Positions 18,091-56,786 of a stretch of 64,000 bases of DNA are shown piece by piece (within the stretch, counting starts at the first letter, position 1; each line of letters opens with the position of its first letter). Origin of the DNA: Escherichia coli (GTDB lineage Bacteria; Pseudomonadota; Gammaproteobacteria; Enterobacterales; Enterobacteriaceae); assembly GCA_025544715.1 (NCBI GenBank), contig GCA_025544715.1_4109.1, one strand, 5' to 3'. A program made the position numbers and the translations under genes. The notes below the pieces were generated by a model. It did not search any database and was not told the DNA's origin. It saw only the letters and a program-made list of their open reading frames with translations.

Positions 18091-18138
18091 ATATCATAAA
18101 TAAATCAAATGAATGAACGAATTATATGGAGTCCAAAA

Positions 18139-21100
18139 ATGACTAATAATTTTAAGTTTCAACCTACACAGATGGCTGAAGCAGTACAGAAGAAGCTTTT
18201 TATTAAAAGATTGCCTGAGTGGATGCAAGGCTTAGAAGATATTCAAAAAGTCAGTGATGATGTTATTCAACAATGGTTTAATCCGGCTGAAAACGAATTA
18301 GTTGACGGCTATATTGGTGATATGGGTTCTCCTGCCGCTGCTGGTAATATCTTCTTACATGAAAGTACTGTAGCACGTCAACTTTATCAGTTGTCCACTG
18401 CTTACGTCTCAAAAAATGATGATTCGACAATTCGTTCAATTCAATTTTATGATGATCTAGTTGGATACATGAATCATTATGGAGCACTAACCGATAATGA
18501 AAGCCGTTTGTTCAACGGTAAGTTTTATGCATGGACTCCAGCTATTAACCCAAATAAAATGAACAATTTTAGCTCATATCTTTGGGACACTAAAAACTCT
18601 TATAATATTACTTCACCTGATTACATTGTAATGGAACGTGGAGCACTTAATGGTAATACATGGTCACTACAAAACTTTTGGTATACTTTAGGTGAAACTT
18701 TAGAAGATGGTTCAATTTTAACTGAAGAATTAATGCAAGATTCTCGCTTTATTCGTGCCCGTGCTCCAATTATCGAATATAATAAAAATATTGAACTAAT
18801 TAACTACGGTACAAAATTCCGTGGAACTGTCGATCTATTCTCAGATATAATCAAACCTGAAGATATCGTACAAAAAGATATTAATAGTGGCATCCGTATT
18901 GATGGTATTATTCCACAAGATGGTATGCGTATTCTATTCACCAGTATTGGTAACAATGGTGAAAATAATAGAATTTATAATGTATATGTCAAAAAAATGC
19001 AGGATGGTACTCGTGTTTATGGTTTGGCATTAGATCCAGAAGAAGAAACCGAATCACGCCCAAGTGGTGAACCTCAAGATGGTGATGTTGTTCTAATCAC
19101 CAAAGGTAATGAGTATGGTAACAGTTCTATGTACTGGAATGGTTCTTTGTGGGTTCGTGCACAATCAAAAACTAGTGTTAACGTATTCCCTAAATTCCAA
19201 CTTTATGATCGTAATGGTATCAAACTTGACAACAGTACTACATATCCATCCAGTAACTTCAACGGTTCACAATTGTTTGGATTTAAAATAAATTACAACT
19301 ATGCAACTGATAGTGTATATGGATATAACATCGAACTTGGTGATTACAATTATTACATGTATGAAAACTTTTTACAATCACAACGTTATACCTATGACCA
19401 TCTTGGAATTGAAGTTGAAATTGATGGTTTATACTATTATAATATTATTGATGAAAATAATGAAATGAATCTCCAAACTGATTGGGTTCGTTCAGAAGAG
19501 TACTCTAAACAATATGTAAAACAAACACCACAAGTACAACGTACTGACATGTATCGTGTGTTCAGCACTGTTTATGATATGGAAGTTTTTAAAGAACCTG
19601 TTGATGGTATGTATGCATATGTTGTTGAAGTTGATAGAACCTATCAGTACTATAAAGCAGACCGCGAAACTTATCTAGACTGGCATCCAATCACTGGTGA
19701 TGGTGTTCAGATTGTAAAATATGACCACACATTCGAATTAGCACAAAAAGTTTTAGATAATGATTCTGACATAATTGAAGTTGTTGTTGATGGTGTTGAT
19801 GTATCAAAATATACCAAAAATGTATCAAAAGGTCAAGTTCAAAGTATCACCTTAGATAGCACTGTAGATTTGGATGAAGATTCAGTTATTCAAATTAGAA
19901 CTTATAGCAGTACTGTAACTCCTAATAAAGAATTAGGTGCATATGAAGTTCCAATTAACTTACAAAATAACCCATACAATTCCAATATTATATACATTAA
20001 CCAAGGAGACTACACTCTACATTTTCAGGATATTATTCAAAAGAACATTACAAGTGGTTCATCTGACGATTTTAATGATTATGAAGAACGTTTAGCGAAA
20101 GGATTGGTTAATAATGGTGTTGGCACTAAAATTATCCAAAATGAAGCATCTATGCTTCCATTGATGGCACATACTGCAAATGAAGACATTGATTTGTTTG
20201 AAGCAACTATGTTTATGCAATCTGAATATTTTAGATTTATTAATAAGTTTAATACTCAAATGCTTCGTATGTATGATGAAAATCCATCAGATTTTTTGCA
20301 AAATAGTGCTGCAAATATTGTTGATTCTATTTTAACTACTATCAATATGGGGCGTGATAGTTCATTCCCATTCTATTATGATAATGTTGGGAGTACTTCT
20401 GGATTTATTCGTGCATTTATACCACCAACACCACAGTTCTTGGGTATTCTACAAGCATATGTTCCAGAAAAAGCGACATTCCTTACTGCTGGTAGTAAAC
20501 CAAGCTGTTATAACATCAGTCATACTGGTATTATTTCGAAAGCATATCGTGTCATCAATGGTGTTGATAAAATGGATGATGTTGTATATGAATTAGAAAA
20601 TAGAATTTTTAATAGTATCGATAATAAATTCAAAGATGTTGATTATGTTCCAGTTTTGAACAGTGATGATCTTTTTCCTACACCATATTTCACAAAAACC
20701 GAATATAGTGCAGAAGAGAAACAAACGCTATTGTTACGTGGTTATATTAACTTTACTGCATCTAATGGTATCAGTAATAGTACACATGATTATGATCCTA
20801 ATAATTGGAGAACTTGGAACTATACCGGAACCTATTATGTAGTTAATGGTCAAAGTACTGAAATTCCTGCTCGTGGTTCATGGCGTGCAATTTATACTGA
20901 CCAATATGGTACATATCGCCCTGCAACACATCCGTGGGAAATGTTTGGCTTTTCACAGCGTCCAACTTGGTGGAACCAAGAATATGAACCAACTGCTGTT
21001 CAAGTTGGTGAGCGTGATAGTGATGTGGTATATGTATATGAAGCACTTGTTATGAATGAACAAGGAGATTTAGTTCCTAGTGGTCTATGGGATATCGACG

Positions 21101-24100
21101 GCACTATCGGAGATAGTAGTACTGGTACTATTTTGTCTGGTGATCGCCGTGGACAGTATGACAAATATAAAAGATTTGGTGTACAGCCATTTAAAATCAC
21201 AAAAACTGGTAATAAAACATCTTCCGGTATTGATATTTGTGTTGTTGAATATATTGCACCTGAAATTTTAGGTTTAGTGTCTGGTTCTTTAAATCATAGA
21301 GCAGAACCTTGGGCATATGGTGACATGGGTGACATGGAATTTACATACATGAACACTACATTGTTTGCATATGACCAAATGCTACTTTTGTATAAAGCTA
21401 AACCTGCACAATTTGCTAACTATTTTTGGGATACCCGAAATGACAATTTAAAAGAAGTATTCACTGATGGTTCACAATTCCTTTATGGTGATACACGTAA
21501 GCGTATTAATTTTGATAAAAACACTGTAGTTCATGGTGAAAATAACACAAGAACAATTGGTTATCAAATGTTTGTTAGTGATTATTTGATGTATCAAAAT
21601 AAAAACATTACAACCAAATATGGGGATGTAGTTCGTTCTTCTTATATAAATGTTGGTCATAAAATTGGTGGTTTTACTAAAGCAGATCAGCTAACATTCA
21701 ATGCTAAATCATTTGGTCTTATTTCACAAGAAAACCAAACTATTGGTCTTGTTCGCTCGAATAATATTCGTGATGAACAAATGAGTGCTATCAAAATTAC
21801 TTGGAATGGTAGTGCATATCAGATTGATGGATATGATTTAGTTGGTGCTAAATTCAAATATAAACTGCCAGTGAAAAATGGTAGAAAAGTAACTCTTAAA
21901 TTAGAAAACCGCAATGTTGTTCATTATAACGAATGGAAATCTGAAGCTTCCATTGAATATGGTAAAGTTTTTAATAGTTACCAAGAAGTTTATACTTTTA
22001 TTTGTGGTTATGGTGAATATCTTAAAGAACATGGCTGGATTTTTGAAGATGTAAATGATAGTGGTGCTCAACAAGATTGGAACACTATTGCTAAAGATTT
22101 TGTGATCTGGAGTCAGAATTCTCTGGTAACGGGTGAATTTATTTCTTGTACACCAAGTGCAGCAAATGCTAAATTTGGTGCAGACTTTGGTTCAGTTCAA
22201 TCTATTACACAAAATAACGGTGGTGTGTGGTCATTACTTGATGATAACAACCAAGGTATACGTCAATATGAAATTGAAACTTCTCGTATTGGTAATATCT
22301 TTACTGTTAGAACTTTAGAATCCAATAAACGTATAGCATTAATTCGTTTAAGTTTGTGTTCATATGAACATGCTGTTATTTTTGATGATAAGACTATTTT
22401 TGGTGATTATATCTATCAGCCAACTTATGGTTCTATTCAAGAATTAATTAAAATGTATGGCTACATTACTGGTTCATGGACTGGTCGTCTACAAGCTCCT
22501 GGATTTATTATCTTGGAAGCTGGAACACTACCATCATTTGAAAAATTAGTGTCGGATTTCCAACATTATTATGATAGTGAAACTCCAGTAAGTGATGTAC
22601 AATTACAAGAGTTGTCAAACCATTTGATTGGTTATCAATCTCGTGATTATCTACAGCGTATGATTAGTAGTGATGTTAGTCGTGTTGATTTCTATAAAGG
22701 ATTCATTCATGATAAAGGTACTAACCAAGTTTTAGAACGTGTACTTCGTGTTTCTAAATCATATGACACTGATGAATATAAAGCATTACAAGAATGGGCA
22801 TTTAAAATTGGTACATATGGTAATATTGATGGTAAGAAAAATCTTCAATTTAAATTGATTAATGACCAATTTAAACAACAACCTCAAATGGTTTCTTTTG
22901 ATGTAAATGCAACTTCAAATGGTAATGGTAATCATATTGTATACTTTGGTGAGCAGGGTAAAGATCCTCGTTGGATTACACGTCCAAATGGTAAGTTCTC
23001 ATTCCCAATGCGTAGTGGAAGAAGTGAAAATATCCAACTTCCAGATATTGGTCCAGTAACATTGGATGAAGTATCGTACACAACAAAAGATTTCAGTACT
23101 GCATATAATGACCGCATAACTTATACTAATGGTAAAGGTGAAAATCCTGAATCTGTGTGGATGTTTAAAGACGGTAATGGCTTGTGGAACATTTTTGAAT
23201 TGGTTGATACTAATGTGCAAATGGTTTCTATAACACCTATTGAAAATACCGATGTGTATGCTGAACAATTTTGTAAAGTAACTTTAACTGATAATGTACC
23301 ACTTGAAGATGGTGATTATTATTATTTTGTTGATGAAACTAACTTTATGCCAGATACTTTAACAGTAGAAAGTCAATATTATACTGCTGGTTCTGATCCT
23401 AAAGTTATGGTAGTTCCATTTGACACTTCTATTGATATTGAATTTACTGATCCAGATACACGCCCACGTTTGTATCGTTATGTATCACGTTTTGTCAGTA
23501 CTGATGAACGTCAAGCTTACATTGACAAGAAATATAGTTTTAAAGCACCACAAAGTACTTTATTTGATCGTCCAACAACATATGACGAACGTACTAACAT
23601 TACTGAGCTATATCTAAACGTTTATGACCCAATTAATGGTGTTATTCCAGGTGCGGCTATGCAAAACGTAACATATACTTCACCAGTTGATCCTGCACAG
23701 TATAATAGTAATGGAGAGTTAATCCAAGCTTGGGGTGCTGATAAAGTTGGTCAAGTATGGTGGAACACTAGCACTGCATTTTATTTGGATTATACTCGTG
23801 CAATTTATGACGCAGACGGTAATGTTGACATTGATGCAACAAATGAATACAAACGTTACAACTGGGGTCGTTTATTACCACATAGTACAATTGATGTGTT
23901 AGAGTGGGTTTGTTCACCAGTTGAGCCATATAACTGGGACAAATACTGTAAAGATGTTGCTAAGAAAAACAAAAATAATACTATGTATCTACCAAGTGGA
24001 ACTGCACTTGAAGATAATTATAGTACATTTTTGGAATATGATAGTTCAACTGATAGTTATGTGACAAAATACTATTTCTGGGTACGTGATACAATTTATG

Positions 24101-27100
24101 TACCACCACTACATACCAGAACAAAATCATGTACTGACATTGCTCGTATTATTAAAGATCCAACACAGCTAAACATTCCTTGGTTCGCTCCAATCAATGA
24201 AAACTCGTTTATTCTTAGTAATATGCAATTTAAAGTTAATGATGATACCAGTATTTTAACTGTTTCTTATTACATGGATAGTACTGAAGTTGTTAAACAT
24301 GACCAGTATCAACTATGTAAAGAAGGTGACAGCTATAACTTTAACCCACTAATTTGGGATTCAATGTGGAACTCACTAATTGGTCAAGAAACAACTGAAT
24401 CAGGTTCTGTGATTAATTTATTATATCCAGATGTTGATAACGGTTTAGGATCAAACAAAACTTGGTTCCAAAATGTTATAGAAGCTCGTAGAAACTTTGT
24501 AGAAAGTGCTAATAATTATTATAGGTCACAAAACATAACCACTAATAGTGTTGTTATGGAAGATGTGTTTAATGTTAAAACCACTGAAGTTAACCCGAAT
24601 GAAGTTTCTTTCCGTGTATTGTCTTACAATAATGAATTAGTTATTGCAGTTGAAAGTGATAAATTTAAAGAAAATGACGCTGTTATTTTAAGTACTAGTG
24701 GATATCTACCAAATCCATTAACTTCTAGTGCTGTTTATTTTATTCACTTCGACGAAAATGGATATATTCAGTTAATGAATAGTCCAGCAAACGCGGGTAG
24801 TGTTGTTACTATAACGTTAGAGAACAAAGGTGAGGGTCAACATAAAATGATTAAACAATCTGATTATGTTGAATCACTAGGAACTTCATTGGACATGACT
24901 CAGTACTGGTCATATGCTGATTGGTATGATGTTGGGTATGATAGTAACACGACTTATACTCAAGAGTCAAGCTTAGAAGATGCTAATACTAAAAACTACC
25001 AAGTTGGTGATATTATCAGAGTTACCGATAGTGAAAACATTTGGACATTGTATATTAAATCACAATCACGCGATTCAATTTATTGGAAAGCGATTGGTCG
25101 TGAAAACAGTACAGTTGAACTCAATGATATGCTTTACGCAGATTATAGTGTTCATAATGATAATGGTTCACTAAGCAATCGTGAAATCAACGTTCGTAAA
25201 GCACTCGCTTTACTCAAAAATTCTTTCGATTTACATCAAAGCGAAATTGTTTTTGATATGGTCAAATATGTACATGTTGAACAAAGTGTTGTGGATTGGG
25301 TATTTAAAACATCATATATCTATATTGTTGGTTTGGAACAATCATTAGTTCAAAACTATTCAAACGATAATTTGATTAATCAAATTGTTGAATATTTTGA
25401 AGAAGTTAAACCTTATAGAACTAAAATTCGTTCACAAATAGAGCAAAAGACATCTGATGATGATTTAATAAAAGGTCTGTGTAATGATTTAGATCCTAAT
25501 GGATATATTTTCGTTGACGGTTCTTGGGTCAAAACTGAAAAAGATATTTGGGATTATGAGTACGCTCAATTTAATGAAATTACCCAAAAATGGGAACAGG
25601 TAGGTTCACTACCAAGCGATTTCATTACACCAAATAGAAGATTCCAAGAAATTGATATTATTATGCATTACGATAACATTCAATGTAAACCAAATGCAGA
25701 TTTGGCAAGCATAAATGAATTAGTAAGTGTTAATAACAAATATCAATCCAATGAAAAGGATGCTGTTAGTAACTATGAATTACAACGTTATATATATTCT
25801 TTCCCAGAATATAGTGAAGAAACTTTCGATCTTCTTATTGCTTATCAAATGCAAATCTACTATCCAGAATTGGATGTAACACTAGGAACAGCATATGGCG
25901 TTAACCAGTGGTATAAAGACCATGCGGAAGATTTAGAAGCAACTGATGAATTTACTGCTACATTGGAGCGTGTTTATAAAGAATCAACGCAGAACGATAT
26001 GTTTACTGACCTTAGACAATATGTTCAGTATAACACATTGGCAAACCGTTTGAAACTTTATAAAGATATAAGTGATGAGAAAATTCACGATGAAGTTGGT
26101 TGTGGATTTAGTGGACTTACTTATAATGACAATCCTAGTACTAGACTTCCATTAGGCTTTTCTTCTAGTAATGATTATAACTATGGATATTTTGAAATAA
26201 GCAGTGAACTGTATCAAAAATATATTTCATTAATTAAAGATAAAAATCCTGACGCATCAGACTATGAAGTAAAAGTTAAACTTGAAGTTGAGTATGGTGT
26301 ATATGTTTATCGTTATGATGAAGTCGGTGGTGATACCCGTTTCTATACTGATGCTATTCACGTATTAGCAGGTATGAGAGGGTTATTCGACAAAGACGCT
26401 ACTGATAAGTACGAAAAAGCTGAAGAGATTCTTAGTAAAACCCCAATTGATATCTATGCAATTACAATGATTCCAAGAAAATATGTTTACTTAAATGTTA
26501 ACGGTGTATATCAAAGTATACCTGATGAACAAAGTATTGATGATTTCATGGAAGATTATTTTATCACAAATGGTGAAATGATTGAACTAGCTGAAATAAA
26601 TCTAGATGATTTACCACTAGATCAAAATAACCCAATGTATTCAGATTATCAATATATACTTGATAGTATTACTGAAGCTAAGTACTTCAATGATATGAAT
26701 GCATTTGATAACCTAGCATTAGAATCTCAAACTTCTTCAATAAAATGGGAAGTTAAAGATGATGAAGTTGATCCTTATATTGTGGATATATCTGATATAA
26801 ACCCTTCTGGGCGTGATGTTGGTCAAATTAGATTTACAGTTGATGGATATGGGTTTGACAATGTATCTCTTGTACAACTACGTGATAACAGCAGATATCA
26901 AACTGAAGGTATGGCAATTATCAATCCATATAAACATACAGAAGCAATTGTTAGTATTCCTTCATATGCTAAGATTGAAAATGATATTAATAAAACAACA
27001 TCGAAGTTTGATGAAAAATATTTCTATCGTGTGAGATCTATTAATAGCTTAACTGAAGCAGAAATAGTTGACAATGACCTATCTGATGGTGATAAGGTGA

Positions 27101-28110
27101 TGATTTTCACTCCTGATGGTGAAGATTTTGTGAGATATCAAAATCACACATGGGAAACAATCTTGCGTGTATCTAATATCAAAAACAATACAACTCCGAT
27201 CCTATTCACTGTAAGAAATACAGGTAAAGAAACGATTGAATTGATTGATGAGAGTACTGGTGCAGTTCTCCGTTATGATAATATCACTCTTGCACAACAA
27301 AATGAGCCAGTACAGCCTCTTGCATTGAACATTGTTCGTGTTAGAACATTTGCTGACCCAGAATTTGTGAAGAATGGTATCAAATTGTACGAACAAAATA
27401 GAAATTACACAATTGATGTAATTAATTATGATGTTTTCTACGATACTACTTTAAATGGTGGTAAGTACAATGACGGAATAACACCAGATGACGTTGACGT
27501 TTGGGTAATCTCTAACGAAATATTTGATGTTGATGGAATTACTATCGACAACGGTTATAACCTACCAATTACTGGTGCGGGAGTTCTTAGTGAATTAGCA
27601 AGAACTAAAATGACTGATAGTTTAGAAATCAACGTTATTGAATATGATTCAAGTGTTATTCAACCGTTTAGAAATAATGAAGGTATATGGGTTTATGGAT
27701 ATCCAATGGTTGACGGTATGTACATCGGTGTTGTTGGTGGTACGGTTACTAACATCACAACCATTAGTGAAGAAAATACAACCTATGTTTCTCAACCTAA
27801 ATCAATAAGTCCTTATAGTATTAGAAATAATGTTTTATCCGGTTCAGCCGCGAACATGAATGATATTATATCGATTGGATATGAAAAAGTTGAAGTTAGA
27901 AATGCAAATAATTTACTTCGTGGAGTAATGTATAGTGCAGAACATGATTTTAAACTTAATACTACATATTCATTCAATGGAATTAATTTAGGTAATTATG
28001 ATATGTTAAAACGTTACACACAAAATAGTTACACTATAGATCTTTCAGTATACACTGATAGTCTACAAGTTAGTGGTAATGATATTAAAAATATATTATT
28101 AGTTAAGTAA
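18139..28110 (+). CDS. Giant virion protein (about 3320 aa), presumably baseplate or fibre-associated
   Basis: Uninterrupted 10 kb ORF in the baseplate operon. Start moved to ATG 18139 (GGAG RBS; CATAAATA box overlaps track start 18109). Non-repetitive; no catalytic motif recognised by eye. Confidence 0.85.
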   Translation: MTNNFKFQPTQMAEAVQKKLFIKRLPEWMQGLEDIQKVSDDVIQQWFNPAENELVDGYIGDMGSPAAAGNIFLHESTVARQLYQLSTAYVSKNDDSTIRSIQFYDDLVGYMNHYGALTDNESRLFNGKFYAWTPAINPNKMNNFSSYLWDTKNSYNITSPDYIVMERGALNGNTWSLQNFWYTLGETLEDGSILTEELMQDSRFIRARAPIIEYNKNIELINYGTKFRGTVDLFSDIIKPEDIVQKDINSGIRIDGIIPQDGMRILFTSIGNNGENNRIYNVYVKKMQDGTRVYGLALDPEEETESRPSGEPQDGDVVLITKGNEYGNSSMYWNGSLWVRAQSKTSVNVFPKFQLYDRNGIKLDNSTTYPSSNFNGSQLFGFKINYNYATDSVYGYNIELGDYNYYMYENFLQSQRYTYDHLGIEVEIDGLYYYNIIDENNEMNLQTDWVRSEEYSKQYVKQTPQVQRTDMYRVFSTVYDMEVFKEPVDGMYAYVVEVDRTYQYYKADRETYLDWHPITGDGVQIVKYDHTFELAQKVLDNDSDIIEVVVDGVDVSKYTKNVSKGQVQSITLDSTVDLDEDSVIQIRTYSSTVTPNKELGAYEVPINLQNNPYNSNIIYINQGDYTLHFQDIIQKNITSGSSDDFNDYEERLAKGLVNNGVGTKIIQNEASMLPLMAHTANEDIDLFEATMFMQSEYFRFINKFNTQMLRMYDENPSDFLQNSAANIVDSILTTINMGRDSSFPFYYDNVGSTSGFIRAFIPPTPQFLGILQAYVPEKATFLTAGSKPSCYNISHTGIISKAYRVINGVDKMDDVVYELENRIFNSIDNKFKDVDYVPVLNSDDLFPTPYFTKTEYSAEEKQTLLLRGYINFTASNGISNSTHDYDPNNWRTWNYTGTYYVVNGQSTEIPARGSWRAIYTDQYGTYRPATHPWEMFGFSQRPTWWNQEYEPTAVQVGERDSDVVYVYEALVMNEQGDLVPSGLWDIDGTIGDSSTGTILSGDRRGQYDKYKRFGVQPFKITKTGNKTSSGIDICVVEYIAPEILGLVSGSLNHRAEPWAYGDMGDMEFTYMNTTLFAYDQMLLLYKAKPAQFANYFWDTRNDNLKEVFTDGSQFLYGDTRKRINFDKNTVVHGENNTRTIGYQMFVSDYLMYQNKNITTKYGDVVRSSYINVGHKIGGFTKADQLTFNAKSFGLISQENQTIGLVRSNNIRDEQMSAIKITWNGSAYQIDGYDLVGAKFKYKLPVKNGRKVTLKLENRNVVHYNEWKSEASIEYGKVFNSYQEVYTFICGYGEYLKEHGWIFEDVNDSGAQQDWNTIAKDFVIWSQNSLVTGEFISCTPSAANAKFGADFGSVQSITQNNGGVWSLLDDNNQGIRQYEIETSRIGNIFTVRTLESNKRIALIRLSLCSYEHAVIFDDKTIFGDYIYQPTYGSIQELIKMYGYITGSWTGRLQAPGFIILEAGTLPSFEKLVSDFQHYYDSETPVSDVQLQELSNHLIGYQSRDYLQRMISSDVSRVDFYKGFIHDKGTNQVLERVLRVSKSYDTDEYKALQEWAFKIGTYGNIDGKKNLQFKLINDQFKQQPQMVSFDVNATSNGNGNHIVYFGEQGKDPRWITRPNGKFSFPMRSGRSENIQLPDIGPVTLDEVSYTTKDFSTAYNDRITYTNGKGENPESVWMFKDGNGLWNIFELVDTNVQMVSITPIENTDVYAEQFCKVTLTDNVPLEDGDYYYFVDETNFMPDTLTVESQYYTAGSDPKVMVVPFDTSIDIEFTDPDTRPRLYRYVSRFVSTDERQAYIDKKYSFKAPQSTLFDRPTTYDERTNITELYLNVYDPINGVIPGAAMQNVTYTSPVDPAQYNSNGELIQAWGADKVGQVWWNTSTAFYLDYTRAIYDADGNVDIDATNEYKRYNWGRLLPHSTIDVLEWVCSPVEPYNWDKYCKDVAKKNKNNTMYLPSGTALEDNYSTFLEYDSSTDSYVTKYYFWVRDTIYVPPLHTRTKSCTDIARIIKDPTQLNIPWFAPINENSFILSNMQFKVNDDTSILTVSYYMDSTEVVKHDQYQLCKEGDSYNFNPLIWDSMWNSLIGQETTESGSVINLLYPDVDNGLGSNKTWFQNVIEARRNFVESANNYYRSQNITTNSVVMEDVFNVKTTEVNPNEVSFRVLSYNNELVIAVESDKFKENDAVILSTSGYLPNPLTSSAVYFIHFDENGYIQLMNSPANAGSVVTITLENKGEGQHKMIKQSDYVESLGTSLDMTQYWSYADWYDVGYDSNTTYTQESSLEDANTKNYQVGDIIRVTDSENIWTLYIKSQSRDSIYWKAIGRENSTVELNDMLYADYSVHNDNGSLSNREINVRKALALLKNSFDLHQSEIVFDMVKYVHVEQSVVDWVFKTSYIYIVGLEQSLVQNYSNDNLINQIVEYFEEVKPYRTKIRSQIEQKTSDDDLIKGLCNDLDPNGYIFVDGSWVKTEKDIWDYEYAQFNEITQKWEQVGSLPSDFITPNRRFQEIDIIMHYDNIQCKPNADLASINELVSVNNKYQSNEKDAVSNYELQRYIYSFPEYSEETFDLLIAYQMQIYYPELDVTLGTAYGVNQWYKDHAEDLEATDEFTATLERVYKESTQNDMFTDLRQYVQYNTLANRLKLYKDISDEKIHDEVGCGFSGLTYNDNPSTRLPLGFSSSNDYNYGYFEISSELYQKYISLIKDKNPDASDYEVKVKLEVEYGVYVYRYDEVGGDTRFYTDAIHVLAGMRGLFDKDATDKYEKAEEILSKTPIDIYAITMIPRKYVYLNVNGVYQSIPDEQSIDDFMEDYFITNGEMIELAEINLDDLPLDQNNPMYSDYQYILDSITEAKYFNDMNAFDNLALESQTSSIKWEVKDDEVDPYIVDISDINPSGRDVGQIRFTVDGYGFDNVSLVQLRDNSRYQTEGMAIINPYKHTEAIVSIPSYAKIENDINKTTSKFDEKYFYRVRSINSLTEAEIVDNDLSDGDKVMIFTPDGEDFVRYQNHTWETILRVSNIKNNTTPILFTVRNTGKETIELIDESTGAVLRYDNITLAQQNEPVQPLALNIVRVRTFADPEFVKNGIKLYEQNRNYTIDVINYDVFYDTTLNGGKYNDGITPDDVDVWVISNEIFDVDGITIDNGYNLPITGAGVLSELARTKMTDSLEINVIEYDSSVIQPFRNNEGIWVYGYPMVDGMYIGVVGGTVTNITTISEENTTYVSQPKSISPYSIRNNVLSGSAANMNDIISIGYEKVEVRNANNLLRGVMYSAEHDFKLNTTYSFNGINLGNYDMLKRYTQNSYTIDLSVYTDSLQVSGNDIKNILLVK

Positions 28111-28112
28111 TA

Positions 28113-28146
28113 AAAAAGGAGAGCATATTGCTCTCCTTTTCTTTTT
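28113..28146. terminator. Bidirectional rho-independent terminator
   Basis: A-run, GGAGAGC-atatt-GCTCTCC, T-run; between convergent stops of the giant gene and clpA. Confidence 0.7.
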
Positions 28147-30435
28147 TTATGCCAGTGCTTTATCTACAGCTTTGGAACGTTTCGGTTTAATACCGATTTT
28201 ACCATCAATAACATCAAATGTAATGTTACCACCATTCACAAGTGAACCACACAACATTTCTTTAGCTAGTGGTACACGAATGTTTTGTTCAATGGTACGT
28301 TTCATTGGACGTGCACCCATGCCAACTTTTACCCCATTTTTCGCAAGCCATTCACGTGCAGCTTTTGTCAATGTAACTTTAACATTGCGGTCTTTGACTT
28401 GTTCATTCAAACTGCCCATGAACTTATCAATGATGCTGTCAATAGCTTCACTGCTTAGGTCTTTAAACGTAACGATACTATCAATACGGTTAATGAACTC
28501 TGGTGGCAAGAATGCTTTAATTGCCTTGTCTTGTGCAGTATCACTACCGCTCATACCAATGCTACGCTTCGTTGAATCTGCCGCACCAAGGTTTGTAGTC
28601 ATAATAACAGTTACGTTATTAAAATATACAGTTTTACCTTGTGAACCAGTCAGGCGACCTTCATCCAAAACCTGTAGGAAGGTTAGTAGTACTTTACGAT
28701 CTGCTTTTTCAATTTCATCAAGTAACAGTACTGCATTAGGGAACTGCTCAATTTTATCCAACAGTAAACCGTTACCAGAATCATGACCAACATAACCTGG
28801 AGGTGAACCAATTAGTTTAGAAACAGTATGTTCTTGAGAAAATTCTGACATATCAAAGCGAATCAGTTCCGCACCAGTTGCATCTGCTAATGCTTTGGTA
28901 ATTTCTGTTTTACCAGTACCAGATGGTCCAACAAACATAAATGCACCCTGAACACTAGATTTGTCACGCAGTCCTGCACGAGCTACCATCACGTTATCAA
29001 CTAATTTTTGAATAGCTTCCTCTTGACCGTATACACGTGAGCGTAGTGCATCTGGTAGATTACGCATACGATCACTTTCAGTACATGCAACCACGTTGAT
29101 ATCCAAATTGGCAATGCCAGCAACAACTTCTTGAATCAAATTGGCAGTAATAAGCTTACTATTGTTGTCACGTGAACGAACTTTAGCAGCAGCAGCGTCC
29201 ATTAGATCAATCGCTTTATCTGGGAAGTGCTTATTCTTCAGGAATTTATCACTGAGAGAAATTACAGCATCCATTGCATCAGTTGTGAACTCAACATTAT
29301 GGAATTTTTCATAAGTTGGTTTCAAACCATTAACAATTGCACGAGTTTCATCAATTGTCGGCTCAACTACATCAATTTTCATAAAACGACGAGTTAATGC
29401 ACTATCTTTCTCGATATTTTTACGATATTCATCATATGTTGTTGCACCAATTACACGAATCTCACCACGTGAAAGTGCTGGCTTAAGCATATTGCTCATG
29501 TCCATAGAACCATTACTTGCGGAACCAGCCCCAACCATAATATGAATTTCATCAATGAAAACAATAGTATTTTCACGTTTCTTTAGTTCTTTTAGCAAAT
29601 TGTCGATACGTTCTTCAAACTCACCACGATACTTAGTACCAGCAGTCAATGCACCAACATTTAGTGAAAGAATTTCAACGTCTTTCAGGTGTTCAGGTAC
29701 GTTGCCGTCAGCAATAGCTTGTGCAAGACCGTCGATGATTTGTGTTTTACCTACACCAGCTTCACCAGTGAGAATAGCATTCTTTTTGGTCTTGCGAGCA
29801 AGAGTCTCAATCAATGCAGACAATTCTTTCTGGCGACCAATCATAGGATCTAGTTTGCCTTCTTTTGCAAGAGCAGTTAGATTCGTTGTATAGTCTTCCA
29901 AACCTTTTTGTTTAGATGATTGCTGCTGTTGGGCCACTTTTTTATCTCCAATCGGTTCGTCATTAATGCTTTGTAAGTTGATACCCTTATCAAGTGACTC
30001 AACGTGTTTTTGTAATGCACGTGCAGCTTCAGTACAGCTAACACCTTCTTCTTTTAACGCAGCTTCTAGTGCTGTGTTAGGGAAAGACAGACATTCGAAT
30101 AGAACAAAATATGCATCAATCGAAAAATCATCACTTTTTAGTTGTTCAATAACTGATTTTTTAGAAAGCTCATGTACAACGCGATTCACTAGAAGTGAAG
30201 TACGATTCGCGTCTTCATCTTTAACACTTTTTGGTGCATGTGGAACTGTTGTATTTTTAAGATAGTTCATCAGGCGGTTGTGCAGTTTGTCTGCATCAAT
30301 GTTCATATCTTCAAATACGTTCTTGATGCTATCAATAGTCAGTACTGTGGCACTTACGTGGTCAATAGTCAAGAATGTATGACCTAGAGATGTTGCCAGT
30401 TCGTCGCTTTTTTTGAACAATTGAGTAAGATTCAT
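28147..30435 (-). CDS. clpA: ClpA-type AAA+ unfoldase (Clp protease ATP-binding subunit)
   Basis: Clp N-domain; AAA-1 Walker A GEAGVGKT and Walker B IVFIDEIH; AAA-2 Walker A GPSGTGKT and Walker [10 protein letters not shown]; SIGMSGSD aligns to the ClpA IGL loop; [11 protein letters not shown] sensor; no ClpB-type middle domain. Start placed at ATG with AGGAG RBS (track start 30456 is an upstream GTG). Confidence 0.9.
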
Positions 30436-30475
30436 GTATTCTCCTATGTGATTCACGTCACTCTAATTAATAAAC

Positions 30476-30503
30476 ATTATATCACATTCTTACGGTTTGT
30501 CTA
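30476..30503 (-). promoter_or_regulatory. Early sigma70-type promoter for clpA (TAGACA-N16-TGATATAAT)
   Basis: Minus-strand reading TAGACA, 16-nt spacer, extended -10 TGATATAAT; same GATGTGATATAAT core as the two promoters near 56700. Confidence 0.55.
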
Positions 30504-30545
30504 CAAGGTAAATAAAGATATACCCGATTTATTTTGGAGACAAAC

Positions 30546-32039
30546 ATGACATATAGAATGTGGAAAAAAGGTAGAACCAATGATTACAAGTTCATTGATT
30601 CTGCCATTGCTGAACAATACAACATTGGTGGAGTTGACATGTGGCTTTATGCATATGTCGGTCCAAAACAAGTTGCTGACAACACTGACTTATCCTATGG
30701 AGGTGATTATACATCTTCAGGATCAGTTGTGTCAAGTATTGGCGATTTAATTTTTGGTGACACACCAAACAGAAACTACAACCTTGAAGCTATCACACTT
30801 AGTTGTGTCTATCAAGTTCAAGAAGCAACTCCAGACTTGAAAATCCCAGGATTGTTCTTTAATTTCAACACTATGGACATCACAATCCATTATAATACAA
30901 TGATGCAGCGTTTAGGTAGAAAAATCATGCCAGGGGATGTGATAGAACTACCAAATTTACGTGATTTTGATGTATTGGGTAAAGATACAGGTCTAAACCG
31001 CTTCTATGTCGTCCAAGATGCATTTCGTACATCTGAGGGATACTCGGTTACGTGGCAACATCACATTTATAAACTTAGAGTTAAACCGCTAACCGACTCA
31101 CCTGAGTACTCCGATTTACTCGGTAACAATAATTATCCTGATAATCCAGATGACCCTAATAATGGTAATGGAAATACCGATGATGGTTCGTCGGAAAACA
31201 GTAACTATGACAATGAAATGGATATCATGAACCGTATCATCATGCAAGCTGATGATGAAGTACCCTACATTCATTTTACAAATGAACATTTGTATGATGA
31301 TCGACCTGATACTGTAGATTTATCAAAATATATGCTTAATGGTTATGATTTCCCAGAAGAACCTGCCGATGGAATGTATTTTTTGAAAAAAACATACCCA
31401 GTACTCAAAGAGTTTGTTAATGATACATGGATTTCTGTGGAAGTCAAGCGTGGAACTATCTTTCCCAGAAAACCAATGGATGGTGACTTCTTCTTTAAAG
31501 AAAATGACGCAGATGTGACAGGTTATACGTTGTATCAATATGATAAAAGTGCTAAAAAATGGTTAAATTGTGATGTAGAATATACTACCAGTGATGTTCC
31601 ACCAGAAGATGTGGAAGATTTTTGTATTTTTTATAAAGAACCACACATTTATCAGTATAATGATGACAAGTGGGGGGAACCAAAGGTAACTTATGTCAAT
31701 GAACCATTCACGTCCAATTGTGTATATGGTAATATTGATTCCCAACAAGATTATCGTCCTAAAATTCCACCAGCACGAGGTACTGTCCCTGAAGGAAATA
31801 TGTTCCCGACTGATGCAGTAGATGGTGACTATTTCTATCGTACCGATTATACCCCAGTTACGTTATGGGAATTCAATGCAACTAAGAATTCATGGGTTAT
31901 TTTTGATTATGGTGGAAGAAAACCGTGGGAAGGTGCAGACCTAGCACTTACACAGTTTGTAAATAGTGATAACAAAGTTCCATTACATGACGCAGTTAAA
32001 CCTAATACTGTTTATCGCATACATAAGGACACAGAATGA
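30546..32039 (+). CDS. Virion structural protein, possibly baseplate wedge gp8-like
   Basis: Start placed at ATG 30546 (GGAG RBS). GGVDMWLYAY and three P-x-DG-x-YF repeats resemble T4 gp8 segments (weak recall). Confidence 0.55.
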   Translation: MTYRMWKKGRTNDYKFIDSAIAEQYNIGGVDMWLYAYVGPKQVADNTDLSYGGDYTSSGSVVSSIGDLIFGDTPNRNYNLEAITLSCVYQVQEATPDLKIPGLFFNFNTMDITIHYNTMMQRLGRKIMPGDVIELPNLRDFDVLGKDTGLNRFYVVQDAFRTSEGYSVTWQHHIYKLRVKPLTDSPEYSDLLGNNNYPDNPDDPNNGNGNTDDGSSENSNYDNEMDIMNRIIMQADDEVPYIHFTNEHLYDDRPDTVDLSKYMLNGYDFPEEPADGMYFLKKTYPVLKEFVNDTWISVEVKRGTIFPRKPMDGDFFFKENDADVTGYTLYQYDKSAKKWLNCDVEYTTSDVPPEDVEDFCIFYKEPHIYQYNDDKWGEPKVTYVNEPFTSNCVYGNIDSQQDYRPKIPPARGTVPEGNMFPTDAVDGDYFYRTDYTPVTLWEFNATKNSWVIFDYGGRKPWEGADLALTQFVNSDNKVPLHDAVKPNTVYRIHKDTE

Positions 32040-33379
32040 AAATAGATTATTATTATGACGGTCAATTTCGCAGAGTACTGAAACATCTTATCAGAGTTTT
32101 TGGTGAATTTCAAGTACAAAATGGTGTTGATGCTAATGGAAACCCAAAATACAAAAAGGTTCCATGTCGCTATGCCGATATTTCAAGAATGGCAGCAGCA
32201 ATTATAAATGGGAATAGTGAAAATGTTCTCCCATCAGCACCTATAATGACCATAAGTGTTAATCAACTAAAGTTGGATCGTAAAAATATTCGTTCTAATG
32301 CCAACGAAACTATAGTAATGGGGTCTAACAAGACCCCTGCTATTAATGAGTACACAAAAGAACTTGACACACAATACAAAATTGTAAGACATAACCCAGT
32401 ACCTTGGACTTTTACGTTTGATTTGAATATTTGGGTAACTCAAACTCAAACTAAAATGGAATTATTCGAACAAATCTCAACTTTGTTTGCACCTAGTATA
32501 CAACTTCAATTATCTGATAACCCGTTAGATTGGACATCGCTTAGTGATGTTGAACTAATAGATTGTCAGTTTTCTACTCGTGGTTTTCCACAAGGAACTG
32601 ACCCAGATTTGGATATAATGGTTTTAACATTTGAAACGACAATATGGTTTTCTTTACCAGCTATTGTTGAAAAACCAAAATTAATTCAACAGATTACTAC
32701 AAATATTAAAGGTGCTCGTGACGAATTTGATTTTGAAATGGGAAATTATTCAGATATAATAACAGATGTTTTTACACCAAAGAACTTATGTATTAAAGTT
32801 GAAGAAATTACTAATTCCAAGTATAATTTACCTGATACATACCAACTTACCTTGGTTAGCCAATCGCTATCTGCGGTTTCTCCCAACGGTGGAATATATT
32901 CATGGGAAAAATATCTTAAATATCTAGAACCAAATTTTGATGATAAAAAAGTAGGGATTAAATTTCAACAATCTATTGAAGAAGACAACCCACTAAAAGG
33001 TCATATAGCGTCGTATGGTGAAAATGAAGATGCCAACAAAATTATAGTACAGCTTGATAATACAAATTATACTGTTGATTATACTATACATGGGTTTGTG
33101 CAGAAAGATTCAGTACTTTCAAATGCATTACCTGAACAATATTATGTAAATAACAGTATACATAACATCATTTATAAAGAAACCGAAATCCCATCAAATT
33201 ATTTGTTTAAAATTACAAATGATGGTGCACAATTAATTGAACCATCTACTGTACGAAATTACATTTATAATAAAGAAGACAATGGTTATTATAGATATAA
33301 TGACAAATTTAAATGGCATAAAAGTATAATGCCTGTGTATCGTCAGGGATATTGGAAAATAACTTTCACTGACAAATAA
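32036..33379 (+). CDS. Virion structural protein (hypothetical)
   Basis: 447-aa ORF translationally coupled (ATGA overlap) to the upstream gene. Confidence 0.55.
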   Translation: MKIDYYYDGQFRRVLKHLIRVFGEFQVQNGVDANGNPKYKKVPCRYADISRMAAAIINGNSENVLPSAPIMTISVNQLKLDRKNIRSNANETIVMGSNKTPAINEYTKELDTQYKIVRHNPVPWTFTFDLNIWVTQTQTKMELFEQISTLFAPSIQLQLSDNPLDWTSLSDVELIDCQFSTRGFPQGTDPDLDIMVLTFETTIWFSLPAIVEKPKLIQQITTNIKGARDEFDFEMGNYSDIITDVFTPKNLCIKVEEITNSKYNLPDTYQLTLVSQSLSAVSPNGGIYSWEKYLKYLEPNFDDKKVGIKFQQSIEEDNPLKGHIASYGENEDANKIIVQLDNTNYTVDYTIHGFVQKDSVLSNALPEQYYVNNSIHNIIYKETEIPSNYLFKITNDGAQLIEPSTVRNYIYNKEDNGYYRYNDKFKWHKSIMPVYRQGYWKITFTDK

Positions 33380-33392
33380 AGGAGGTGTTGTT

Positions 33393-33857
33393 ATGAATGA
33401 AGCGGTTGGTGCTATATTTTTATCAAAAAGTACTGGACATATGATGTTAAACTTGCGTTCTGAAAGAAGTACCTATTCTAACAACTGGGCATTTGTTGGT
33501 GGAAAGCTTGAACATAACGAAACACCATTACAAGGTCTGATGAGAGAAATTAAAGAAGAGTTGGGCAACTCAATACCTAACATTATTGATATTATACCGT
33601 TTGATGTATTTTGTACAAAAAATGGTAAATTTAAATATTATTCATTTGTTATTGTAGTTGAGAATGAATTTGTACCGACTTTAAATCATGAAAGCTCTGG
33701 TTATGCTTGGGTTAGAATTGGTTCTTGGCCTAAACCATTACACCCTGGTGCTAAAAATACTTTACTTAACACAAACTTAATGAAAGATTTTTACTCACTA
33801 TGGGAAAGTATACGTGAAGGTACACAGTTTGTCAACAGTTTACCATATAGATATTAA
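33393..33857 (+). CDS. NUDIX hydrolase
   Basis: Nudix box GGKLEHNETPLQGLMREIKEELG (G-x5-E-x7-REUxEExGU); AGGAGG RBS; own terminator. Confidence 0.85.
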   Translation: MNEAVGAIFLSKSTGHMMLNLRSERSTYSNNWAFVGGKLEHNETPLQGLMREIKEELGNSIPNIIDIIPFDVFCTKNGKFKYYSFVIVVENEFVPTLNHESSGYAWVRIGSWPKPLHPGAKNTLLNTNLMKDFYSLWESIREGTQFVNSLPYRY

Positions 33858-40547: not shown

Positions 40548-43500
40548 ATGTACTCAATAAAAACTGACTTAGATATTACTGGTGCTGGTACGGTTGGTAA
40601 GGATCTTTTAGTCAAAGGAAATGCTGTTTTCAATAATAACCTAACTGTAAATGGTACTGTAACTTTTGCAAATGCAACTTTTACTGCCATTGAATCATCA
40701 ACTGCCAACATTACATCTACTTTAGATGTTGGTGGCAAAGCAACACTTTCTGGTGGTCTTGGTGTTGAGGGTAATACTACAATCGGTAGTGCAGTTGTCG
40801 GGTCTGATACAGCAACAATTAATTCAAACGCTACCTTTAACGGTACTGTATCAGTTGGTTCTGATTTTACACAAACTGCTGGTACAACCACTCTACAAGC
40901 AACTAAAGTTAAAAACTTAGAAGTTGCTGAAACAACAGCATTTAAAGGTAATATTACTGCTGATGTTGGCACTACTGCTGCATTTGATAAAATTACTGCT
41001 AATACCGCAGAAATTACTAATGTAAGTACAACCGATATTAGTAGTACTGGAACTGCTACTTTTAAAGATGTAACCATTAGTGGTACATTAGGTGGTCAGT
41101 TTAATCTTTCTGACTTAAATGCAGTAACATTGAACGTTTCTGGTGCATCTAACCAACAAGGTGCAGTAACTTTCGGTGCTAACGTAACTGGTATTAACAG
41201 TACTGCTACTTTTAAAGACATTCGTATTGGTTCTAACTCTGAATCACAAACCTTCAGATTAAGCTTCCCTTACACTGCTCCTGGTAAACGCCCAACTGTT
41301 ATTCTACAAAACGAAATTCAGTCCGAGCTAATGTCACCTGCAAACTTGACAGTATTGACCTCTGCTTCTTTTGGTAATGCGTCATTATCTTCTTATGGTA
41401 TTACTGGTAATGGTCTAAACAAATTGGATTATCTAACAGTTTCTGGTAACAACACACAATCTCCAGACACACCACTATTAGAAGTTCAAAAAGGCAAAAC
41501 CAAAGTTGCTGACTTTGAAGTAACCGGAACTGCAACTATTCCAAATATTGAAAGTACTGGGACTGCTAATTTTAATAACATTAATGTTTCTGGTCTTCTT
41601 GGTGGATCATTCCAACTAGACGATATTAATGCAGTATCATTGAACGTTACTGGTGCAACTTCATTAGTTGGTGGTGTTACTCTTGGTTCTAATATTACTG
41701 GTTATAACAGTACTGCATCCTTTAAATCTATCAGCTTAGGCCAAAATAGTCAAGATGCGGCAGTGAAACTAGGTTTTGGATATACTGCACCTGGTCAACG
41801 TCCAACAGTTATTCTACCTAACGAAGTTCAATCAGAAGTCGTTTCTCCTTCTACATTGAACGTTCTTAAAACAGCAACTTTCGGTAACGCTTCGCTTTCC
41901 ACTTATGGTATTACTGGTAACGGTCTAAACAAACTAGATTATCTAACTATTACTGGTAACGAAACACAAGCTCCAGGTACACCATTCCTACAAGTTGGTG
42001 GTAAAGCAATTCTTAATGATGTTGATTTTACTGGTACAGTAACTGGACTAACTGTTGATGTTAGTGGTCAGGATCTAACACCTAATTCTGTTGTCGCGGC
42101 AGCAAATATTAAAGGTGCAACACTTGAAAGTACTGGTAACACTACTGTGGGTGCTAAACTAACTGTTACTGGTGATATTGCTGGTACAACTGCAACTCTT
42201 TCTGGTGCATTATCTGCTGGTTCAGTAAGTTCTGGTACTATTACTGGTACAACTTCAGTTTCAGCACCAACAATTAGTGCATCTACTGAAGTAACTGCTC
42301 CTACTATCACTGCTAGTGGAACTTTAAGTGGTCAAACCATTAACGGAACTAATATTAGTGCAACAACTCTTACTGCACCAACTATTAGTGGTAATACAAA
42401 CTTTACAGAAAATGTTGATATTACTGGAAATCTAACAGTTACTGGTACAGTAACCCCAGGTACAATTGATTTGAGTACTACTGATGTTAGTGCTAAATCA
42501 ATCACTACTACCGCTGGTGCAAATATTGGTGGCGATCTTGTGGTTCAAGGTTCTTTTGATTTATCAGCAGCAGACATTAACGTTAAATCACTAACTTCTT
42601 CTGGTATTGTTAAAAGTAATGACCTTGTTAATGCTAACGTACTTCCAGTACTTAATAGTACAACAGTCACATCAACAACTGTTAATGCTGATGATATAAC
42701 TGTTACTGGTTCTGCAACTCTTGGAACTGTATATGCAAGTACATCTGTTCTAGTTGGGTCAACTTTAACTGTAACTGGTGAAACTACAACTGCATCTTTG
42801 GTTACCCCAACCATTTCAAATGCAAGTGGTGTCACTATTTCCAATAATACAAATGTAACTGGTGATCTAACCGTTACTGGTGCAGTTATTCCAGGCTCTA
42901 TCGATCTAGCAACAACTGATGTAAGTGCGAAATCTATTACTACTACTGCTGGTGCGACTATTGGTGGTAACCTAACTGTTAATGGTACAGTAGATCTTAC
43001 TACTGCTGATGTTACTGTCAAATCTTTAACTAGTACTGGTGCAATTGTTAGTAATGAATCCACAATTAGTAGTGTTCTACCTAAACTTCAAAGTACTGAT
43101 GCAACTATTGCAACCCTTGGTTCAACAACTGCAAATATTACTAATTTGAATGTTACTGGTGCATCTACCGTAGCTGACGTAACTTCTTCAGGTAAAGTTA
43201 AAGCAGTTTCTGTAGAAACCCCAACAATTAGTAACGTTGATGGTGTATCTATTTCCAATAATACATCTATTACTGGTGACCTAACAGTTTCTGGTACAGT
43301 AACCCCAGGTGCGATTGATTTGAGCACAACTGATGTAAGTGCGAAATCTATTACTACTACCGCTGGTGCAAATATTGGTGGTGATCTTGTTGTTTCTGGT
43401 ACAGTTGATTTAAGTGGTGCTGATGTATCTGTTAAATCTCTAACAAGTACTGGTATTATTACAGTTAGTAGTGCAGAAGGTATTAACGTTCTACCTAAAG

Positions 43501-46500: not shown

Positions 46501-46527
46501 ATGTTTATTGCACAACGTACTGCTTAA
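40548..46527 (+). CDS. Very large repetitive fibrous protein (long tail fibre-like), interrupted by an assembly gap
   Basis: Thr/Gly/Val-rich beta-type repeats of several periods; the frame before the gap (40548..44999) and after it (45096..46527) encode the same repeat family, so the two track ORFs 40548..45101 and 45418..46527 are one gene; GGAGGG RBS. Confidence 0.75.
44508..45290 (+). repeat. Near-identical 336-bp (112-aa) in-frame tandem repeats inside the fibre gene
   Basis: Unit GVTGKATVGSLD(S/T)GAISATSGTFSTTLDVTGAATFGNNVNITGTLTPGALDLTSTDVVANSLSVA... recurs at 44508 and 44844 and resumes after the N-run. Confidence 0.8.
45000..45095. other. Assembly gap (96 N)
   Basis: Run of N; falls exactly inside the 336-bp tandem repeat, so copy number and true gene length are unknown. 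Confidence 0.95.
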
Positions 46528-56663: not shown

Positions 56664-56691
56664 ATTATATCACATCGTTTCAACTTGTCAA
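56664..56691 (-). promoter_or_regulatory. Strong sigma70-type early promoter (TTGACA-N16-TATAAT, TGn extended -10), proximal
   Basis: Minus-strand TTGACAAGTTGAAACGATGTGATATAAT; A-tract UP-like element upstream. Confidence 0.65.
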
Positions 56692-56758
56692 TCACTTTTT
56701 TTCTTTTTTTTTTCAAACTCACATCTTGTGACGCTTGAAAACTTTATGTATGATGCTT

Positions 56759-56786
56759 ATTATATCACATCATTCTATCTTGTCAA
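56759..56786 (-). promoter_or_regulatory. Strong sigma70-type early promoter (TTGACA-N16-TATAAT, TGn extended -10), distal
   Basis: Minus-strand TTGACAAGATAGAATGATGTGATATAAT, 95 bp upstream of the proximal copy. Confidence 0.65.

Follow-up and report, generated by a model that had tools for sequence, protein, structure and literature searches.

The stretch of DNA analysed here, 64,000 nucleotides of contig GCA_025544715.1_4109.1 in the Escherichia coli assembly GCA_025544715.1 (hereafter the window), carries clpA, a gene whose sequence marks it as a real and intact gene for a ClpA-type double-ring AAA+ unfoldase, within part of a RaK2-like jumbo myovirus genome of about 350 kb. We regard it as just on the probable side that the product works as the unfoldase of a phage-borne ClpAP protease, probably assisted by a ClpS-like adaptor, and that it is produced from host-polymerase promoters before or independently of late expression.

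In the proposed mechanism, host RNA polymerase would transcribe clpA from the gene's own sigma-70-type extended -10 promoter, and expression would precede, or be independent of, that of the surrounding late structural genes. The N-domain would bind substrates, possibly together with the phage ClpS-like adaptor, and these would be threaded through the KYRG and GYVG pore loops while ATP is hydrolysed in both rings. The hexameric double-ring protein would dock via its IGM loop on a ClpP tetradecamer and pass the substrates in; the likeliest partner would be the ClpP of the phage itself, whose gene lies about 80 kb away and also has a sigma-70-type extended -10 promoter. The physical assembly of ClpA, ClpP and ClpS-like protein, the timing of their expression and the identity of their substrates are all things that we infer.

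Existing records, among them those of 121Q, slurp01 and Sharanji, already call the gene ClpA. The window thus holds one more copy of a known, annotated gene, and the finding as stated in an earlier note on this DNA is not new. A 2018 paper reported that ClpA is conserved in RaK2-like phages and listed ClpA, ClpS, ClpP, ClpX and ClpB in phage Atu_ph07 (PMC6102473). Iyer et al. (2021) described ClpP, ClpS, ClpA and ClpX in subsets of jumbo phages and suggested host-protein targeting or virion assembly (PMC7824862). Assembly, replication and aggregate clearance have been proposed as roles for the Clp sets of other jumbo phages, and a 2025 review treats phage ClpXP homologues as being of unknown function (PMC12707154). 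In the literature searched we found no paper on the co-occurring three-gene set or on docking-loop variation in the RaK2-like group. The wider picture is that of a group of 350-kb phages which keeps a full but unlinked set of ClpA, ClpP and ClpS-like genes behind sigma-70-type promoters, those of clpA and clpP being alike in their extended -10 type. Strict conservation of the ATPase core in this group goes with a docking tripeptide and a ClpP pocket that depart from the bacterial rule.

Identity of the protein and phage origin of the window

Compared with solved structures, the predicted protein aligned with residues 20-734 of E. coli ClpA in a single unbroken stretch (E 1e-180, 41% identity). 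Among the NCBIfam models for Hsp100 proteins, ClpA ranked first (TIGR02639, 755 bits, versus 634 bits for ClpB, 549 bits for ClpV and lower scores for ClpK and ClpG), with residues 9-747 falling on model positions 4-732 of 734. ClpB, ClpC, ClpV, ClpK and ClpG were rejected as identities, since their scores were lower and alignments were split; with ClpB and ClpC, the middle domain breaks the alignment into two pieces. The comparison with ClpA, ClpB and ClpC profiles proposed in the earlier note is therefore decided in favour of ClpA, with the Walker motifs kept. The scores lie below the ClpA equivalog cut-offs (755 versus 993 bits for TIGR02639, 655 versus 1350 bits for NF008263), and the protein is best described as a divergent ClpA relative, not as an equivalog by the NCBIfam standard. 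Both models cover its N-terminus, and it matches an existing phage protein family, phrog_4871, over the full length with 1036 bits.

Pfam recognised the domains AAA, AAA_lid_9, AAA_2 and ClpB_D2-small in the product. The Clp_N match was marginal (21.7 bits versus a cut-off of 20.7, residues 18-66 of the 769-amino-acid open reading frame, one repeat detected), and the Q/K-rich linker that follows (amino acids 147-178) is poorly conserved (0.42 versus 0.73 overall). All ATPase and pore motifs are retained across the 25 clade members and near relatives inspected, among which the D1 Walker A core GxxGVGKT is invariant, and the arginine-finger motifs RRF and NRID are intact in the window protein. 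The description of a full-length ClpA-type protein with an N-domain and two intact AAA modules is thus borne out by Pfam and NCBIfam, by the alignment and by the motifs, for the N-domain only marginally.

The open reading frame extends over positions 28147..30456 on the minus strand and would encode 769 amino acids from a GTG at 30456. We rejected this start in favour of the ATG at 30435 on the basis of an AGGAG site, matching annotations and the conserved upstream layout. The resulting length of 762 amino acids is that annotated for phAPEC6 gp246c and Sharanji gp377. Four of five aligned lineages retain the GGAG of the ribosome-binding site, Klebsiella phage Muenster having AAGGAAAA there, and positions 30436-30510 comprise the 5' untranslated region and the promoter.

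With E. coli ClpA (ClpAP with ClpS; PDB 1KSF, 6W1Z, 6UQO) the phage protein shares its length (762 versus 758 amino acids), the domain order of N-domain, D1, D2 and D2-small without a middle domain, the Walker A/B pairs, the motifs KYRG, GYVG, RRF, NR(I/L)D and GARPM, and a hydrophobic-Gly-hydrophobic loop at the IGL position. It differs in having IGM instead of IGL within a shorter loop and a strongly diverged N-domain and linker, and in that its presumed partners are phage-encoded as well. ClpB, ClpC and ClpV have two AAA+ modules and the N-domain type in common with the window protein but carry a coiled-coil middle domain, and ClpB and ClpV are without the ClpP-docking loop. The RaK2-like orthologues (121Q gp581, phAPEC6 gp246c, Sharanji gp377, RaK2_00069, GAP32 and CBB_235) show no difference of substance: protein identity is 99.5-99.7% to the Asteriusvirus copies and 60-76% to those of other genera, and the neighbourhood, promoter and terminator layout are as in the window. 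Other phages with Clp proteins are Agrobacterium phage Atu_ph07, with ClpA (gp292), ClpS (gp708) and ClpP (gp676) plus ClpX and ClpB, and the Pseudomonas phage PA5oct-type phages and Phosso, with ClpA and ClpS. The ClpA of Atu_ph07 and PA5oct is only 38-41% identical to that of the window and belongs to other lineages and other gene contexts.

In a nucleotide search, 61 phage records matched the 2.36-kb clpA stretch. Identity is 98.4-98.8% with Asteriusvirus jumbo coliphages and their near relatives (121Q, PBECO4, phAPEC6, slurp01, Sharanji and the Salmonella phages SD-*) and 85-90% with further Escherichia jumbo phages. The gene coordinates in the window are nearly those of Sharanji, with shifts of one or more bases in places. 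This identity and these coordinates establish the RaK2-like origin of the window.

The earlier note had named a host-derived contaminant or a chimeric assembly segment as what would undo its reading. Together with a decaying pseudogene, such an artefact might be suspected from the G+C content of clpA, which lies slightly above that of its flanks (38.8% versus 32.8% and 34.2%). However, the gene occupies this place in at least 45 phage records and in five lineages. Megablast against 5,426 complete E. coli genomes returned no match, and the encoded protein has only 41% identity to E. coli ClpA; the open reading frame is intact with all motifs conserved. We thus consider an artefact refuted, with next to no probability left to it. 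Several near-identical ClpA proteins carry the NCBI labels 'Escherichia coli' or 'Salmonella enterica' and come from contigs of 350-378 kb. These contigs are probably jumbo-phage genomes deposited within bacterial assemblies, and none of the bacterially labelled copies was found among the complete E. coli genomes searched.

ClpP and ClpS-like proteins of near-identical phages

The window contains no clpP or clpS; tblastn with E. coli and phage queries returned chance hits only (E >= 0.3). The search beyond the window that the earlier note had suggested found both: phage genomes that match the window with 98.5-98.8% identity encode a ClpP (121Q gene 464) and a ClpS-like protein, each about 80 kb from clpA.

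Gene 464 was reached with E. coli ClpP as the tblastn query (35.6% identity over residues 17-203). It matches PF00574 with 141 bits and solved ClpPs with an E value of 1e-36, and the triad Ser97, His122 and Asp171 is kept in 121Q, RaK2, CBB, 7t3 and XaC1. It thus encodes a bona fide full-length ClpP. Orthologues occur in about 70 RaK2-like records and are 96-100% identical in most other Asteriusvirus-type coliphages, 90.5% in phage A4, 66-75% in RaK2, GAP32, CBB, 7t3 and Erwinia, Serratia and Yersinia phages, and 45% in XaC1. Besides ClpP these phages have a separate prohead protease of the T4 gp21 type, which is why the RefSeq label of ClpP, 'head maturation protease', looks wrong. A promoter of the form TGGACA-16-TGaTATAAT lies in the 64-nt gap upstream of 121Q clpP.

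The phage ClpP carries a conserved C-terminal extension of about 22 amino acids (...KRRGGVEEWV), and a single peptide of it has been detected, in CBB virions only. Genes for a DnaJ-like chaperone (gene 457) and a PTH2-type peptidyl-tRNA hydrolase (gene 458) lie near clpP in 121Q. Two other 121Q genes were not counted as Clp components, namely gene 473 ('ClpP-like'), with a CLP_protease score of only 16.7 bits, which is below threshold, and no PDB match, and gene 475 ('ClpYQ-like'), with no Pfam hit. The sub-threshold match of gene 473 is of the CLP_protease/NfeD kind and its product has a hydrophobic N-terminus; the N-terminus of the gene 475 product (MTCII...) would suit an Ntn-hydrolase.

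The ClpS-domain protein, 177-181 amino acids long, is encoded in 72 RaK2-like records including 121Q (gene 48) and Sharanji (gp293). With E. coli ClpS as query, tblastn missed the Asteriusvirus adaptor at E 0.01, and it was reached only via the GAP32 homologue; scores against PF02617 range from 24.7 to 54.6 bits versus a cut-off of 23. Among the N-degron pocket residues, the Asteriusvirus proteins keep D35 and T38 and carry the changes N34D, D36P, M40A and H66N. Of the ClpS residues E79 and K84, which contact ClpA, the first is retained and the second has become Phe in each of the three aligned lineages. The phage proteins also share a conserved additional N-terminal region of about 70 residues. 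The gene follows an infC-like gene behind a perfect TTGACA-17-TATAAT promoter. It lies directly downstream of this phage IF3-like gene and near genes for RNase H, a Dda/RecD-like helicase and DHFR.

The numbers of organisms with ClpA, ClpP and ClpS-like proteins are nearly equal (33/34/34 for Escherichia, 11/10/10 for Klebsiella and 8/8/8 for Erwinia phages, for example). Judged by these counts, ClpP and the ClpS-like protein occur in practically one and the same set of RaK2-like records. The 121Q ClpA is 76, 70, 62 and 54% identical to its orthologues in Muenster (RaK2-type), SE_PL (7t3-type), CBB and XaC1, respectively; the corresponding values for ClpP are 70, 66, 70 and 45% (RaK2-type, 7t3-type, CBB and XaC1). 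This parallel divergence would fit vertical co-inheritance of the two genes.

Docking loop, ClpP pocket and choice of partner

The IGM tripeptide, which the earlier note had placed at the position of the IGL docking loop of ClpA, indeed aligns exactly with I617-G618-L619 of the E. coli protein, in a loop that is two residues shorter. Its third residue lies outside the canonical docking set [LIV]-G-[FL]. To describe the variation at this position we used 114 sequences, that is 113 cluster representatives of the phage clade (90% identity) and the window protein. The ATPase core is well conserved in this set, column conservation averaging 0.77 in D1 and 0.85 in the large D2 subdomain. At the IGL position there are 25 variants, which makes the tripeptide the least conserved functional element: IGM and MGM occur 16 times each, IGV 11 times, LGM and IGA 9 times each, LGL and MSM 8 times each, VGF 6 times, IGG and MNM 5 times each and IGL twice, and the remaining 19 sequences are spread over 14 other variants. 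In 19 of the 114 the glycine has been replaced, and A, G, V and H are among the residues that occur in third place.

In E. coli ClpAP, residues I617, G618, L619 and I620 of ClpA insert into a ClpP pocket formed by L23, L48, F49, A52, Y60, Y62, F82, I90, M92, F112, L114 and L189 (bioRxiv 10.1101/820209). In the phage ClpPs of all five lineages compared, Y60 is replaced by T or V, L114 by G or T and A52 by S. Position 82 is S, Y, N, C or M depending on the lineage, and the remaining pocket positions change conservatively. In 121Q the changes are Y60T, F82S, L114G and A52S. A variable loop and a remodelled pocket fit a ClpA-ClpP interface that is private and co-evolving; as an alternative, the constraint on docking may have been relaxed, which would hint at a role partly independent of ClpP. 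Covariation of tripeptide and pocket was inspected in five lineage pairs, which are too few for any statistic.

These data also bear on the suggestion of the earlier note that the protein could dock onto host ClpP. We consider it quite unlikely that phage ClpA acts on E. coli ClpP, alone or in mixed complexes, and so redirects host proteolysis. Such docking would draw on the abundant host ClpP present when infection starts, the clpA promoter is of the host-polymerase type, and IGM retains Ile-Gly and a hydrophobic third residue. In E. coli ClpXP, however, ClpP binding is severely impaired by the substitutions F270L and I268L and by changes of loop length, and the phage loop is shortened and ends in Met. 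The phage pocket with its four substitutions suggests that the loop is matched to another pocket. The absence of clpP from the window, as stated in the earlier note, stands; host ClpP is nevertheless not needed as a partner, because near-identical phages encode their own. That proteolysis is retargeted to host or defence proteins is speculation.

Several observations weigh against the phage-borne ClpAP that we favour. We infer the presence of clpP and clpS from the genomes of near-identical relatives, the two genes not being seen in the window, and clpA, clpP and the clpS-like gene are unlinked. The number of tripeptide variants, the loss of the glycine and the range of third residues are odd for an obligatory partner of ClpP, and the ClpX substitutions I268L and F270L as well as changes of loop length cause severe defects in binding to E. 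coli ClpP (PMC7112951). Moreover, no biochemical or genetic data on these Clp proteins were found in the literature searched.

A bolder form of the ClpAP reading, which we hold to be possible but doubtful, is that the phage ClpA, ClpP and ClpS-like protein form an orthogonal machine with rewired docking interface and adaptor pocket, insulated from the host Clp system and acting on different substrates. The rewired interfaces would be the variable Phi-G/S/N-Met loop facing a pocket that has Y60T and L114G and varies at position 82, and the adaptor with D36P, H66N and its extra N-terminal domain. The substrates would be, for example, targets in host takeover or defence, or the giant proteins of the phage itself. 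If true, such insulated viral proteolysis would be a bacterial-virus counterpart of the takeover of host protein degradation by eukaryotic viruses, and a natural experiment on the variation that is tolerated at the interface of the IGL/IGF loop with its pocket.

Promoter, gene neighbourhood and virion proteins

The 110-bp gap upstream of clpA contains a predicted promoter, TAGACA-16-TGaTATAAT, which scores 11 of 12 in a consensus scan and has an extended -10 element. That clpA has a promoter of its own, as the earlier note had stated, is supported by the five lineages aligned: all have TGnTATAAT after a -35 element (TTGACA in fEgEco12 and Muenster, GGGACA in Munch and GGAACG in CBB), and the sequence between the elements diverges. 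The CBB orthologue has already been catalogued as Porf_235 (TGGAACGACCTAAAAAAATGTGCTATAAT) in a 'divergent RpoD-like' class (Table S6, PMC5259590). Of the 18 promoters in that class 11 precede DNA-synthesis genes and one precedes the gene for a gp55-like late sigma factor; another RpoD-like class, which has an UP element, clusters in the presumed early region, and a third motif, ATAAATA, precedes structural genes (PMC5259590). The predicted clpA promoter fits the divergent pattern, that is TGnTATAAT with T-G-[GA]-[AG]-A-C-[AG] about 16 nt upstream, in an intergenic position. We thus predict that clpA has its own host-polymerase (sigma-70)-type promoter outside the late class. The attribute 'early', by contrast, is not upheld, as the CBB orthologue does not belong to the class that clusters in this early region; expression of clpA may be early or middle. 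The literature searched yielded no transcriptome for any RaK2-like phage.

The extended -10 core is common to the clpA promoter and the two tandem promoters upstream of a MoxR-like gene, again as previously noted. The exact 12-mer ATGTGATATAAT occurs at these three places and nowhere else in the window, with 0.07 occurrences expected and none of 100 shuffles reaching three. Further promoters of the form [TG]-G-[GA]-G-A-C-A, 16 nt, TGnTATAAT match the 'divergent RpoD-like' class of CBB and GAP32, which is linked to DNA metabolism (Table 1). The T4-late-type motif TATAAATA is found only three times on both strands of the 64 kb, at 998, 7534 and 13573 (+). Each copy is intergenic, at a distance of 24-43 nt upstream of a structural gene on the plus strand. 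Going by base composition alone, roughly 18 copies would be expected by chance, and the motif therefore looks depleted elsewhere. The virion list of phAPEC6 contains a 49.5-kDa 'ATPase' (gp265c) whose size matches the 441-amino-acid MoxR-like protein, a match by size alone.

Within the tail/baseplate gene block clpA lies on the opposite strand, as originally described, converging on a gene for a 3,333-amino-acid virion protein and diverging from genes for a 497-amino-acid structural protein and a gp15-like protein. The same arrangement is present in fEgEco12, Klebsiella phage Muenster (RaK2-like), Salmonella phage Munch and Pectobacterium phage CBB, and is kept across ClpA protein identities from 93% down to 62%. 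In each of the five lineages a virion gene of about 3,300 amino acids is convergent and a gene of about 497 amino acids is divergent and followed by the gp15-like gene. Because of this conservation the placement is taken as ancestral to the group, and the word 'inserted' in the earlier note is misleading. Between the converging stop codons a terminator is kept in the five lineages with compensatory changes in its stem.

Mass spectrometry has found orthologues of the 3,333-amino-acid protein in virions of phAPEC6, CBB, GAP32 and RaK2, and the orthologue of the 497-amino-acid protein, CBB_234, in virions of CBB, GAP32 and RaK2; the virion proteomes of the latter three phages are given in PMC5259590 (supplementary file 5). 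ClpA was not detected by virion mass spectrometry in phAPEC6, CBB, GAP32 and RaK2, though both flanking products were. ClpA is thus a non-virion protein encoded within the structural module.

In a rival reading, which we regard as rather unlikely, ClpA would be an unfoldase or chaperone independent of ClpP. It would remodel or disassemble phage proteins with no proteolysis involved, for instance when the 3,333-amino-acid neighbour or other giant tail and baseplate proteins fold or assemble, and its docking loop would drift because docking had become dispensable. This reading would agree with the place of clpA between virion genes in five lineages, with a degenerate tripeptide that includes MNM, MSM, IGA and IGG next to strongly constrained ATPase and pore motifs, and with the role in virion assembly or translocation that Iyer et al. 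proposed for jumbo-phage ClpA and ClpX (PMC7824862). However, clpA is on the opposite strand with its own sigma-70-type promoter and not with the structural genes, some of which, nearby, have the T4-late-type TATAAATA. Furthermore, most of the 114 sequences keep a hydrophobic-x-hydrophobic loop tip with Met as the commonest end, and an intact phage ClpP exists in the same set of lineages, including 7t3, the sole genome of the MNM clade inspected.

Table 1 Features of the window and of the related phage genomes. Positions refer to the window unless an accession is given; amino acid (aa) numbers of the motifs refer to the 762-aa protein.
Feature	Position	Strand	Remarks
clpA coding sequence	28147..30435	-	762 aa plus stop; ATG 30435..30433; stop 28147-28149
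clpA promoter	30476..30503	-	-35 TAGACA 30503-30498; 16-nt spacer; TG 30484-30483; -10 TATAAT 30481-30476
Shine-Dalgarno AGGAG	30441..30445	-	5 nt upstream of ATG 30435; read from the sequence
N-terminal domain, divergent Clp_N type (aa 1-146)	29998..30435	-	Clp_N match; ClpA models cover the N-terminus
D1 Walker A GEAGVGKT (aa 224-231)	29743..29766	-	motif alignment
D1 pore loop KYRG (aa 268-271)	29623..29634	-	motif alignment
D1 Walker B IVFIDEIH (aa 291-298)	29542..29565	-	motif alignment
D2 Walker A GPSGTGKT (aa 503-510)	28906..28929	-	motif alignment
D2 pore loop GYVG (aa 547-550)	28786..28797	-	motif alignment
D2 Walker B LLLDEIEKA (aa 570-578)	28702..28728	-	motif alignment
IGM tripeptide (aa 626-628), at the ClpA IGL docking-loop position	28552..28560	-	alignments
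D2 sensor-2 GARPM (aa 707-711)	28303..28317	-	motif alignment
Predicted bidirectional intrinsic terminator of clpA and the convergent 3,333-aa gene	28114..28140	both	12-bp stem; T-runs on both strands
3,333-aa virion-protein gene, convergent with clpA	18109..28110	+	open reading frame; orthologues phAPEC6 gp245, CBB_236
497-aa virion structural protein gene, divergent from clpA	30546-32039	+	phrog_11591
T4 gp15-like tail-sheath stabiliser gene	32036-33379	+	PF16724
Two tandem perfect promoters TTGACA-16-TGaTATAAT, 95 bp apart	56664..56786	-	upstream of the AAA (MoxR-like) gene
AAA ATPase (MoxR-like) gene, 441 aa	55169-56494	-	phrog_1297; 5' leader of about 170 nt
DUF2201 VWA/metallopeptidase gene	53670-55094	-	after the AAA gene
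Promoter of the same class as that of clpA	7503-7530	-	precedes a block with SbcD-like and Rad50-hook genes
Promoter of the same class	53594-53621	-	precedes the thymidylate synthase block
Promoter of the same class	2802-2829	-	no annotated downstream gene in Sharanji (gap 2085-2921)
121Q clpP (gene 464)	KM507819.1 214364-215059		231 aa
Sharanji clpS-like gene (gp293)	OR545507.1 135529-136074		181 aa

Two further observations concern the tail genes. A gene for a NUDIX/MutT-family hydrolase (33393-33857, +) lies inside the tail block directly after the gp15-like gene. The tail-fibre region (40548-46527, +) differs from that of Sharanji in that it contains open reading frames of 1,517 (40548-45101) and 369 amino acids (45418-46527), whereas Sharanji has one tail-fibre gene of 1,841 amino acids there; the window coordinates beyond it are shifted by about 2 kb. 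The split region could be a recombinant or interrupted receptor-binding gene.

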